Below are positions 25,145-36,569 of a stretch of 64,000 nt of DNA, one piece after another. The stretch is from a virus, in the IMG/VR virus record IMGVR_UViG_3300032770_000014, positions 1 through 64,000 of that record; one strand, 5' to 3'. The number at the start of each line of letters is the position of its first letter. Position 1 is the stretch's first letter. The notes below the pieces were generated by a model. That model had not been told where the DNA came from. It saw only the letters and a program-made list of their open reading frames with translations, and ran no database searches. The position numbers and the translations under genes are program-made.

Positions 25145-25525
25145 ATGCGCTATGCCCGTCGCCATCCTCGACCTCGGGAGTCAGAATCGTCGGGGAGTGC
25201 TTCGGCGGTCAGGCGGTTCGACGATGGGCGGGAAGTCTGCCTGAACAATCCCGCTGGCCGGGCCGAGTACGTGCGCAGGAAGCAACTCCTCTGGGAGCAG
25301 CAGCGCGGGATATGCGCCTACGAGCCGTGCAGTCGGAGGATGTCATTGGCCGCCTGCCGCATGACCGGAGGGAGCTGGGAGCCGACCGGACAGCTCCGCG
25401 ACGACAGGTTGGTGGATCGGGAAGGAAGGAAACTCAATGAGCTGGTCTGCAAAGGTTGCCTGCGCGATTGGCATGATGCTCAGCGTGGTGCTCGCACCGC
25501 TGAGTCTGTGGGGACAGGCCAGTAA
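25145..25525 (+). CDS. Small zinc-binding HNH-like (degenerate) protein
   Basis: LWEQQRGICAYEPC and LVCKGC motifs; catalytic DH not evident. Confidence 0.45.
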   Translation: MRYARRHPRPRESESSGSASAVRRFDDGREVCLNNPAGRAEYVRRKQLLWEQQRGICAYEPCSRRMSLAACRMTGGSWEPTGQLRDDRLVDREGRKLNELVCKGCLRDWHDAQRGARTAESVGTGQ

Positions 25526-28500
25526 CGCCGCCGCGGTCTCCTTTGGCCCGGTCCTGACTCCCTACACGACGATCGCCGCCAATGCGCCTTACCGGGTCTG
25601 CGCGATTACGTCAACCGGGACTCCCTGCGACACTACGGGAGTCTCTATCTATTCTGATGCCGATCTTACTCAGCCCTTGACGAACCCTGGCGCCGCAAAC
25701 TCGCAGGGGATTATCAAGTTTTTTGTTGCGGCTGGGTACTACACGATTCAGGTCACGCCTACTCCCGGCAGCACGTATGTTTACTATACGTCGTCGGCGT
25801 CTGGCGGCGGCAGTGGCAGCGTAACCGAGGTCATTGCTCCGCCTGCCTCATGGCCCTCGTGGCTCGTGCCTACCGTCACCAATCCTACAACCGTGCCGTC
25901 GTTGGCTGTGGCAGCGAGCACTATTCCCCTAGCAGCGGGTGGTACTGCTGGAACTACAGCATCCAACGCCCTCTACAATCTGCTCGGCCAGCCTTCGCCG
26001 GGCACCTACACAGCGGTGTGCAGCGGGACCGGATGTTCGCCGACGGCGGTGGTTCCTAGTGTCACCAGCATCAACACGTCGAGCTACGCGGTGACGACGC
26101 CGGGAGCAGACGCCATCGGGAAGATCACTCCCTATATCGATATTCGGTCCTTGGGCGCGGTCATTGACGGAGCGACGCCAATCAACACGGCGGTTTACGC
26201 TGCTAGCGCGATCTGTCCGCTCTACAATGTCGGTCAATCGAACGGCGCGAGTTGCGTCCTGTTGATTCCGGGCGGCGGCGCGGGTGCGCTTCTGGGGCCG
26301 ACTTCGACGCCGCTGACCTATTCGGGCAACGGAGGAAATGGAGGAATCAGCCGGATTAAGATTCAGGGCGCACTCCAACTGAGTTCGACGCTTGTGTTAG
26401 GGAACAGCCCTATCGAGGGCGACGGCGGAGAGCCTAACGCAAGTGGCGGATTCGTAAACATCGGGCCTACCGCACAGATTATCGGCCCTAACGTCAACGG
26501 CTCGTTTGCCTCGGCGATCACGACGCCGAATGCGACTACCGCCGCAGTGCCCACGTTCATCAATGGCAGCTTTAATAATTTTCCAATAGGCTCCGCGATC
26601 ACGATTGCTGATACCATTCCTTGCACGGCATCGATCACGCGGTCGAGCGCCTATGGTTCGGTGGACTATTACGTTGCGACCTGCAACGCTCGCACGGACA
26701 TCCCACCTCAAGCAGTCATCACGGTTACTGGCTGCTCGGATTCTTCGTTCAACTCGCCATCAAACGGCGTGGCTGTCAACGCGGTCGATTGGCCGAATTA
26801 CATGTTGGGTTACTACGGGCCTGTTGGTTCTGCTGGAACCGCGACCGGCTGCACCATCACCGGCTTGAACTACGACACCTTTGAAAGCGTAGCGATCATC
26901 GGCGCGAACGGGACCAACTGCGCGTCGGGTTCGCTTTGCTTTGTTCCGGGGCACGCACACCCGGCAGGGGCGCTCTGGGGCGAGGTTGCGATCCGGAATC
27001 CGTATAACAACTTCACCAAAGCCGATCTGGAGAACCTGCAAGTTACAAAGTGCCATGGAGCTTGCCTTTGGGCTGAGGGGGGAACCGGCGTAACGCTGCG
27101 CGGGGTGACGCTCGCGCCGGCCGGAATTGCGTCCATCACGAGAATCGCAGAAGAGAGTTCCTCTTCGGCATACGAAGGTGCGTCCATCAGGGACTCGGAA
27201 TTGGATTCAGCGATCAACTTCAACGCTGCTTGTGGCGTTACAAATTCGTGTGCTGCGACTGACTTCCCGGCTGGCTTGCTTTGCGACGGTCTGCCCTCGA
27301 ACGCTGAAGGTGGTAACAACGGCAACGGTTGTCCAAGCACCATCGAAAAGACGACGATTGTCGGCGCGATCTATGATCGCTCAGTTCCATACAACTCTTC
27401 TGGTACAGCCATTCCCGACATGGACAACGTAACCATCGAGCGATCAAATGGGTGCGGTGTCGTTCTCGATCAGAGATACGGTGGTTATCTTTATAATCCG
27501 GCCACGATCAAGAGTATGGCGCTATCCGATCCGAGCGGATCAGGATTCAGTGGCGCGGCCTACAATTCCTCACTGTTCTATCTTTGCTCAACAGACTCCT
27601 ACAGCCCCGGAACCGCCGAGATTCGCATTCAGTCTCCGAGTTCCGGAGGAACGTATAACGTAGGTCCAGCAAGCAAATACTTCGCTAATCCCTACGTGAT
27701 GGACGCGGCGGCGGGATCGACGCTGGCTTACGGGCGCGGCCTTCCGGTTGGTCCTACCACAGACGGAACAGCTATCCTTGGCGAACTGCGCGGCGAAGGT
27801 GCGAGCCTCGCGCCAAGCGTCGTACCGTTCGCGCTGCTGCCAACAATCACGTTATCAGGGTGCAGCAATTGCACGATCACAACGGGAAAACTGTTTGAGG
27901 ATGGGACGGCGAGCGCGGTAGAGATCGACACCACCAGTTCGGGAGCAAGCGGAGTCTATGCAGGGAACACGCCCATTGCGACCTACCCCGGCGATCATTT
28001 CCTCGTCTGGTCGTGGGTGCGCCCCGGAGCCAATAACACGACGCAACCCGGCAGCGTACAGGGAGCCAACATCTATTTTGGGTTGTCTAGTGTAGACACC
28101 TTCAACACTAGCACTGGCGCGTATGGCATGTCGCTGACCAACGACGGCTGGCACCCGCAGGTTGCGCAACTCGACGTTGTGACCGGAAACTCGACTTCGC
28201 ACTATGTGGCCTTCTATCTGTTTGGCGGCTCGAACGCAGGCGAAGGCAACCAGTTTGCCTATTGGGGCTGGTCGTTTATCCCCGGTCCGAACAATCCCGC
28301 CTATACCGGCGTGACGGCTGACATGGTGGATCAGTGGCGGCGCGAGCTTTACCACGGCGCGATCCCTGAAAACTATGCTGGCGGGGCAACGGGCCACGCT
28401 GTTACCGTTGCTCCCATCGATGCGCCAAGCTACAACGTCGTCAACCTGTCAACAGGCGCGGTCACTCCGTTTGGGACGAGTAACCTTGCCGACTGGACCG

Positions 28501-36044: not shown

Positions 36045-36053
36045 GGAGAATCT

Positions 36054-36569
36054 ATGAAAAACCGTATCTACGCAGCCCTCGCCTCGCTCTTGGCGCTGAC
36101 CATCGTCGCCGGGTGCCGCGCACAGCAGCCGCCCTCGCCCACGGCTTACACCTGTCCCACGGCTGTCAGCGGTGGGACCACCTACACGGAGATCAACCCG
36201 CCAGCCAGCAACCTCGTAGCGGCCTCAATTACCACCACCAGCTACAAGTGGACCCCCTCCACAGTAGGCCCGTATTGCGCCATAGTCCAGGCGTGGGGGC
36301 TTCCTGCCGGGGCGACGGTCTATCAGGTCAGTTCGCCATCAAACGTCGTCCAGATCACGAATACGGCGACTGACCCGGTAATCGACTTCAGTTGGACAGC
36401 CCCCGCCACGAACGGCACCTACTCGTCCTACACGTACATCCTGAGCTATGCGGCGGCGACGGCAGTAACGACGGTCCCGACGGCTCCAGCCTTGGCAACA
36501 CCGACCATCAGCACGTCCATGGTGGAGAGCCCGCAAATAATTCTCTCCGCCAGCCTTGGAAAGCGGTAA
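36054..36569 (+). CDS. Lipoprotein with FN3-like fold
   Basis: Lipobox IVAGC; DFSWTAP and SSPSNVV FN3-type strands; AAGGAG RBS. Confidence 0.7.
   Translation: MKNRIYAALASLLALTIVAGCRAQQPPSPTAYTCPTAVSGGTTYTEINPPASNLVAASITTTSYKWTPSTVGPYCAIVQAWGLPAGATVYQVSSPSNVVQITNTATDPVIDFSWTAPATNGTYSSYTYILSYAAATAVTTVPTAPALATPTISTSMVESPQIILSASLGKR

Follow-up and report, generated by a model that had tools for sequence, protein, structure and literature searches.

Assembly of tailed-phage particles is regarded as an entirely cytoplasmic process. The closest described counterparts of the proteins studied here are the tailspikes gp9 of P22 and gp14 of Sf6 and the tail machine of cyanophage Pam1, which have no signal peptide and fold in the cytoplasm. 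In this study, we analysed positions 1 to 64,000 of the IMG/VR virus record IMGVR_UViG_3300032770_000014 (hereafter the window), and in particular a block of genes at 25437-36569 whose first gene encodes a tailspike-like protein of 2051 amino acids (aa). As in P22, Sf6 and Pam1, a small N-terminal beta-sandwich (the N-domain) is followed by a linker and a depolymerase-type right-handed beta-helix, the gene comes after those of internal or ejection proteins, and conservation of the N-domain goes along with exchange of the distal parts. In contrast to these tailspikes, the 2051-aa protein carries a cleavable-looking Sec leader and 17 cysteine (Cys) pairs, is far longer and has a fibre-like distal half. 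There is no sequence family match between them, and the structural likeness (Z 6-7.8) is no better than that to generic beta-sandwiches. It is plausible that the exported proteins of the block would form the adsorption apparatus of the virion and would be attached to it at or after lysis.

No paper describing signal peptides on tailed-phage fibres was found in the literature, and missing signal peptides have been used as a mark of phage origin for fibre-like proteins (PMC6199706). Parts of the arrangement are nevertheless known from other systems. The MAT fibres of Bdellovibrio bacteriovorus likewise combine a signal peptide, a conserved beta-rich N-domain of ~130 aa and a variable, phage-like trimeric fibre (PMC10769870). 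They are chromosomal, are displayed on the predatory bacterium's own surface and are not virus parts, and the likeness considered here is one of architecture, but they show that phage-type fibres can be exported and work outside the cytoplasm. Phages of Porphyromonas gingivalis carry genes with host-type signal peptides that expose Gln at position +1, as here, but these are small genes of unknown function, capsid proteins and spanins rather than tail fibres, and the host belongs to another phylum (PMC10367356). WceF of Pantoea stewartii, from the stewartan locus, is a periplasmic exopolysaccharide (EPS)-locus glycanase (PMC7949094) and in this respect resembles the 685-aa protein of the block, whose cellular relatives lie near genes for Wzy and a Wzx-glycosyltransferase family 2 (GT2) protein. 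However, WceF uses a Tat signal, whereas the 685-aa family has Sec-type leaders without twin arginine and is phage-borne here; the two are treated as analogues. Finally, Tunturi_2 (PP885685; PMC11924767) is a cultured Acidobacteriota podovirus with a genome of 63 kb that is not a sequence relative of the phage studied here. Its gp12, gp13 (tail fiber), gp14 (pectin lyase), gp16 and gp17 (virion structural protein) have leaders ending in A/Q and 10-34 Cys each, and this leader-bearing run directly follows the tail protein gene (PP885685 9802-22744). The Tunturi paper (PMC11924767) makes no mention of leaders and contains no virion proteomics.

The leader-bearing proteins of the window and the parts of the 2051-aa protein are as follows (a slash marks the predicted cleavage site).

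25437-31592, plus strand: 2051-aa tailspike-like protein, N-terminus MSWSAKVACAIGMMLSVVLAPLSLWG/Q
25437..25517, plus strand: its predicted signal peptide, Sec-type, 27 aa, predicted cleavage WG/Q
25518..25841, plus strand: its conserved N-domain, beta-sandwich, candidate particle-binding anchor
26130..28590, plus strand: its beta-helix (pectate-lyase/depolymerase fold) and next domain, ~aa 233-1050
28590..31592, plus strand: its distal fibre part with short repeats and further Cys pairs
31589-33112, plus strand: 507-aa putatively exported protein with leader, N-terminus MKKILSILLLFPLPILA/Q (..LFPLPILA/Q), 210-aa N-domain and a C-terminal part that is possibly LamG-like
33114-35171, plus strand: 685-aa putatively exported beta-helix protein, N-terminus MKSLALIPFLFASLAFG/Q (..FASLAFG/Q), phage copy of an Acidobacteriota EPS-locus gene
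35168-35773, plus strand: 201-aa protein, N-terminus MKTIIAIALCLGSLAWG/Q (..LGSLAWG/Q)
36054-36569, plus strand: 171-aa lipoprotein, lipobox ..LALTIVAG/C after a hydrophobic stretch
38532..39098, plus strand: 188-aa leader-bearing protein, PGYA/Q, in the lysis region, no known family
39887-40249 and 40246-40722, minus strand: small leader-bearing proteins beside the endolysin gene, with 2 and 4 Cys, no known family

The Sec-type signal peptides that the initial annotation had proposed at 25437, 31589, 33114 and 35168 were borne out, each leader ending in [AG]/Q. The same holds for the lipoprotein at 36054, where the lipobox IVAG/C follows a hydrophobic stretch and agrees with the pattern [LVI][ASTVI][GAS]C, and for the proposed coupling of the block genes, which overlap by ATGA or have abutting junctions. 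A signal peptidase I pattern (K/R, a hydrophobic stretch and [AVILG]-x-[AG]/Q) was recognised heuristically in the four block proteins and in three nearby ones, and in all 7 of these leaders [AG] is followed by Gln (25437, 31589, 33114, 35168, 38532 and, on the minus strand, 39887 and 40246). The [AG]-Gln boundary is also present in most cellular Acidobacteriota members of the 685-aa family and in most N-domain homologues. It resembles the 'Q-rule' of Bacteroidetes (PMC5837995); Acidobacteria are mentioned neither in that paper nor in its 2023 follow-up. Every open reading frame (ORF) in this phage and in two complete genomes related to it was scanned with simple hydrophobicity and cleavage-motif criteria, and by this heuristic convincing leaders were confined to the fibre and lysis region in all three genomes.

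The start codon of the tailspike-like gene (ATG 25437) is preceded by the Shine-Dalgarno sequence GGAAGGAAGG, and from the leader up to the conserved domain its frame contains no other start codon. The sequence at this gene thus offers no alternative start downstream of the leader, an observation that had been named as one that would speak against export. A hydrophobic stretch and [AGS]Q stand directly ahead of the domain in 31 of the 33 N-domain homologues, with widely divergent leader sequences. Nearly all complete members of the 685-aa family (~100 relatives) carry a hydrophobic leader of variable sequence ahead of a mature N-terminus that is conserved as Q-x-WSGIL-x-P-x-RA-x-DW, and in the 507-aa family leaders are present in close relatives and absent from distant ones. 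Since leader properties are kept in three independent protein families, it is strongly indicated that the leaders are real and under selection.

The second line of evidence comes from the Cys residues. The mature 2051-aa protein has 34 Cys, arranged as 17 close sequential pairs, and the 685-aa protein has 20, arranged as 10 pairs. In both proteins the pairing exceeded that of 5000/5000 permutations on the gap ratio (p<1/5000), so that the closely spaced Cys pairs remarked upon earlier are non-random. The Cys count is even in 8/8 leader-bearing proteins, while head, portal, polymerase and helicase obey no such rule. Over 56 members of the 685-aa family, co-variation was counted as members with both, one or neither Cys: pair 56/65 gave 4/0/52, pair 237/246 gave 18/2/36, pair 640/663 gave 55/0/1 and a further pair 14/1/41. 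Pair 47/52 departs from this pattern of joint gain and loss. In the N-domain of the 2051-aa protein, Cys55 and Cys64 are invariant. Paired, co-varying Cys of this kind are the signature of disulfides that are predicted to be made outside the cytoplasm. In view of leaders that are kept despite divergence, of co-varying Cys pairs and of a 685-aa family whose cellular members are secreted, we regard export and oxidative folding of the block proteins as highly probable from their sequences.

The tailspike-like build of the 2051-aa protein (leader, N-domain, beta-helix, fibre), which had been read from the sequence, was supported by modelling. An AlphaFold2 model of residues 1-700 (predicted local distance difference test, pLDDT, 79) contains a confidently modelled beta-sandwich at 30-125, a disordered Gly/Ser/Thr-rich linker and a beta-helix from 233 onwards, with pLDDT mostly >85 over aa 233-700. 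Foldseek matched the beta-helix to Klebsiella K1 capsule lyase and GH110 with probability 1.0 and to LKA1 gp49 with 0.95 (E 2e-6 to 2e-5), as well as to GH87 enzymes and, at E down to 4e-8, to viral tailspikes. PF12708 is present in two homologues (P0110 and P0116).

Compared with 1.84 billion representatives over its first 1200 residues, the 2051-aa protein proved to be modular. Many proteins of 400-1300 aa begin with a counterpart of residues ~10-135, that is leader and N-domain, and continue with unrelated distal parts; ~aa 1077-1125 are likewise met in other proteins. Proteins with the N-domain were found on contigs of 65-94 kb, i.e. phage-sized ones only. The domain was not seen in 185,579 cellular genomes, which is weak evidence as that scan used two strict peptide patterns only. 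No related locus was found when the whole 2051-aa protein was compared with viral contigs, and an alignment search with the N-domain returned three viral contigs, two of them complete genomes. These two, the related phages G001 and G003, have genomes of 100.8 and 96.9 kb and head proteins that are 76% and 42% identical to that of the phage studied here. Portal, head, adaptor and a 1393-aa tail protein are common to all three; of the 2051-aa protein, only aa 23-159 are common to both relatives. The 100.8-kb genome has 4 or 5 consecutive leader-bearing fibre-like genes, two of them with the N-domain. The N-domain thus stays with the tail module as distal parts are exchanged, as is usual in the evolution of virion-anchored receptor-binding proteins.

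Modelled alone, the N-domain reached pLDDT 81. VIA ranked a chain from the tail machine of cyanophage Pam1 first (Z 7.8); the N-domains of the P22 and Sf6 tailspikes scored Z 6.0-6.1 with a root-mean-square deviation of 3.2-3.8 over 86-89 residues. Foldseek aligned it to 1lkt at E 0.25 (template-modelling score 0.50). In an ESM Atlas feature look-up, scores of 0.93-0.96 were obtained with viral clusters and one of 0.90 with a Head_binding cluster. Sequences in the PDB were also compared with the N-domain profile and with the 2051-aa and 1393-aa proteins, and nothing relevant emerged. The modelled fold is compatible with a particle-binding domain but is no proof of one, and it is mainly the conservation pattern that makes the N-domain a candidate anchor.

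The two following genes of the block appear to have different origins. Between residues 35-244 of the 507-aa protein and residues 3-212 of a leaderless relative the identity is 49% (E 9e-50), and another leaderless relative matches a 'minor tail protein' PHROG. The distant relatives are leaderless, with their counterpart of the 210-aa N-domain starting at residue 3; in this family the leader was thus added onto a phage tail-type protein. For the 685-aa protein, by comparison, 162 cellular relatives were found, nearly all of them with leaders. They belong mostly to Acidobacteriota (Terriglobia, Acidobacteriaceae, Bryobacterales), and the best one is 71% identical and stems from a Terracidiphilus metagenome-assembled genome. 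No other structural or fibre genes of this phage were found near the cellular relatives. Their EPS-locus context was examined in detail at two loci (L019 and L021), where the neighbours encode UDP-glucose dehydrogenase, a polymerase or ligase of Wzy type with Wzy_C, a Polysacc_synt_3-GT2 fusion and polysaccharide deacetylase. The mature N-terminus of the phage protein is that of the cellular proteins, without an anchor domain, and its only PDB sequence match is a putative pectin lyase (E 4.5e-5). The 685-aa protein is therefore a host EPS-locus gene product that was captured with its leader, and a putative glycanase. Searches of the five block proteins against Pfam and PHROGs matched OMP_b-brl only.

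The window is the first part of a single contig of 93,616 bp with a 237-bp terminal repeat, which indicates a complete genome. The phage is short-tailed and of soil origin, belongs to a clade with genomes of 93-101 kb and probably infects Acidobacteriota (Terriglobia); the mostly acidobacterial homologues of the 685-aa protein point to this host group. No match among GenBank phages was obtained with the block (megablast and tblastn), nor with the head protein, the N-domain, the beta-helix or the 685-aa protein (tblastn). The layout of the genome was derived from PHROG and Pfam matches.

1085-2071: major head protein
7724-8905: SU10-type adaptor
10350-14531: 1393-aa tail protein, leaderless
39413..39787, plus strand: endolysin-like gene, last of the late plus-strand block (PHROG/Pfam)
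Minus strand: DNA polymerase and Dda-type helicase
82689-86201: terminase (outside the window)
89909-91846: portal (outside the window)
Further: three homing endonucleases

On the plus strand, the late genes run from the adaptor through the 1393-aa tail protein and three large family-less proteins to the block with export signals and then to the lysis genes. The order adaptor, tail protein, internal proteins, fibre or tailspike, and lysis is that of T7- and P22-like podoviruses, which places the 2051-aa gene in the fibre/tailspike slot. A small ORF between the internal-protein genes and the fibre block (24183-24404) has a KTSC domain (PF13619, E 6e-14). Methyltransferases, glycosyltransferases and GroEL are encoded outside the window; at 70418-72232, 72674-74077 and 77347-78381 lie genes for a GroEL-type chaperonin (E 7e-130), for a glycosyltransferase and for a nucleotide-sugar epimerase. 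Host surface polysaccharide may be the target of the glycosyltransferase and the epimerase, as for the captured glycanase. In the 1170-aa product of the ORF for the large terminase subunit (82689-86201), the matches to terminase PHROGs fall into two separate stretches, residues 53-176 and 646-1013, suggesting that a large piece, possibly an intein or other element, is inserted in the gene.

A further ORF overlaps the start of the tailspike-like gene by 89 nt in the +1 frame.

25145..25525, plus strand: 126-aa Cys/His-rich ORF (..RRFDDGREVCL..TGGSWEP..QLRDDR..LNELVCKGCLRDWH)

It has no match in Pfam, PHROG or PDB. In five relatives (L001:9584-12229, P0231, P0236, P0240 and P0241), the same Cys/His-rich domain of ~110 aa precedes the hydrophobic segment and the N-domain within one continuous frame, which makes the hydrophobic segment internal. 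The 'MNWFTK' start of the unfused homologues corresponds to another reading frame of the N-x-LVHK motif of the 126-aa ORF. An ESPR-like extended leader behind 'MNWFTK' was considered and rejected, as the motif is the +1 reading of the upstream N-x-LVHK and Pfam finds no ESPR. A GTG ORF of 147 aa (24997-25440) that could be taken for a gene coupled to the tailspike start is probably spurious, since homology supports the 126-aa ORF in another frame.

The distal genes of the block were assigned to another functional group. The 201-aa protein (35168-35773) matches OMP_b-brl (PF13505) with 36.4 bits against a cut-off of 28.7 (E 7.6e-9) and ends in ..VVTTF; it is a predicted outer-membrane beta-barrel with a signal peptide. 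It is followed by a small gene that, together with the barrel, the lipoprotein, a second barrel-like protein and the endolysin, makes up the lysis region.

35784..36044, plus strand: 86-aa protein with a C-terminal hydrophobic helix, putatively holin-like

A terminator-like hairpin lies at 39877-39902, after the endolysin-like gene. No homologues of the 507-aa protein, the 685-aa protein, the barrel or the lipoprotein were found in the related phages G001 and G003. The block is thus not one system, and barrel and lipoprotein belong with the lysis and envelope genes. A late-promoter motif, which the initial annotation had placed at the head of the block, was not recovered there: the only derivable motif, CTTCCTT-N(4-12)-CYTACC, occurs exactly twice (10290-10312 and 16796-16813; 0.03 expected by chance), both times just upstream of late genes that follow homing-endonuclease genes. 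Sigma-70-like sites were not above chance.

We propose the following course of events. The 2051-aa tailspike-like and the 507-aa fibre-type protein would be translocated as Sec preproteins, cleaved before Gln and folded oxidatively in the periplasm. Spike-less particles would meanwhile be present in the cytoplasm, and both would meet only once holin and endolysin breach the envelope, whereupon the spikes would dock on the particles via the conserved N-domain. In vitro, P22 tailspikes can be added to spike-less heads. The 685-aa protein would probably be a free exported enzyme acting on host polysaccharide. To the whole chain of export, periplasmic folding and docking at lysis we assign a probability of roughly 0.5. 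Attachment to the virion is argued for by the N-domain, the sole part conserved with the tail module, by the T7-like gene order and by the lack of another recognisable fibre gene in the rest of the 93.6-kb genome. The earlier proposal of a periplasm-matured adsorption apparatus therefore holds with respect to export, oxidative folding and tailspike-like build, but not with respect to the late promoter and to the block as one system. That no long leaderless fibre gene exists is likewise correct for recognisable ones, in the window and beyond, while weak leaderless candidates remain.

Several observations weigh against this proposal. The leader scan rests on a crude heuristic and not on a trained predictor. 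The fold of the N-domain is common: in VIA, unrelated beta-sandwiches (CnaB-, transthyretin-like) reach Z 6-7.7, Foldseek with the N-domain model gave nothing below E 0.03, and Pfam found no family in the 2051-aa protein at E <= 0.1, including Head_binding (PF09008). The weak leaderless fibre candidates are ORF 3417-4454, with an N-terminal PHROG tail-fibre match, and the 1393-aa tail protein. In Tunturi_3, which infects the same Tunturiibacter host strain as Tunturi_2, the fibres are leaderless and Cys-poor (PP885686 7573-29886). The export trait is consequently lineage-specific and not demanded by the host; the idea that the host forces export on all its phages was rejected for this reason.

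Potentially, the block proteins are exported but never join the virion, acting as late secreted or surface depolymerases, adhesins or envelope remodellers, with the leaderless tail protein as the real receptor-binding protein. They might strip or alter the exopolysaccharide and receptors of the infected cell and thereby aid release or block superinfection. This would fit the 685-aa protein, clearly a host EPS-locus enzyme without an anchor domain, and the absence of homologues of the 507-aa protein, the 685-aa protein, the barrel and the lipoprotein from G001 and G003, as expected of accessory genes. Leaderless tail proteins do exist (10350-14531 and, with its weak tail-fibre PHROG match, 3417-4454), and Porphyromonas phages encode secreted proteins that follow the Gln rule and have an unexplained role (PMC10367356). 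We nevertheless consider a purely non-virion role, the main rival explanation, less likely than attachment to the virion, because it leaves aside that in three phages the N-domain is kept along with the tail module despite exchange of the distal parts, that it was met on phage-sized contigs only (and, with the two strict patterns, in none of the cellular genomes), and that the block occupies the fibre slot of a genome with no other recognisable fibre gene. The initial annotation had offered a related alternative, a host-surface adhesin/glycanase complex anchored by the barrel and the lipoprotein. The 685-aa protein does fit such a role better, but barrel and lipoprotein group with the lysis genes.

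The hydrophobic N-termini could also function in membrane tethering or in timing, or export might concern a minor fraction of the protein only, while the particle-bound pool folds in the cytoplasm. The five fused relatives, whose internal hydrophobic segment is more like a signal anchor than a classical leader, lend themselves to this explanation, and cytoplasmic, leaderless fibres are the norm in tailed phages (PMC6199706). However, nearly all homologues, the fused ones included, retain the [AG]/Q boundary, which is shared with the 685-aa family that is secreted in cells. Furthermore, a reducing cytoplasm fails to explain Cys that are paired, even-numbered and co-varying, which makes tethering improbable. 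Far less credible still is an annotation artefact, in which translation would begin further downstream and the 'leaders' would be hydrophobic frames that are not translated or arose by chance. G+C-rich DNA does yield many long spurious ORFs, the 147-aa ORF 24997-25440 among them, but the strong Shine-Dalgarno sequence ahead of ATG 25437, the absence of an in-frame start before the conserved domain and the conservation of leader properties over dozens of divergent homologues in three unrelated families leave this explanation close to refuted.

Extending the proposed chain of export, periplasmic folding and docking beyond the phage at hand, it is tempting to speculate that a whole clade of Acidobacteriota tailed phages has a periplasmic branch of assembly, in which Sec-exported, Gln-cleaved and disulfide-bonded tailspikes join finished particles at lysis; this wider claim is a tentative one, with slightly less than even odds. 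If exported tailspikes do join the particle, phage assembly would gain an extra compartment and a timing step, and infectivity would be tied to the Sec and Dsb machinery of the host. It would explain the very stable, Cys-rich adhesins of soil phages and would affect the prediction and expression of receptor-binding proteins, for which oxidative folding would be needed. With Tunturi_2 and Tunturiibacter psychrotolerans, a cultured pair with the same trait exists, and the proposal can thus be tested at the bench. Even if the proteins are not part of the virion, this would be a phage that exports large depolymerase-like proteins, one of them taken from a host polysaccharide locus, and such an exported set is relevant to the way in which phages deal with the thick exopolysaccharide that surrounds Acidobacteriota.

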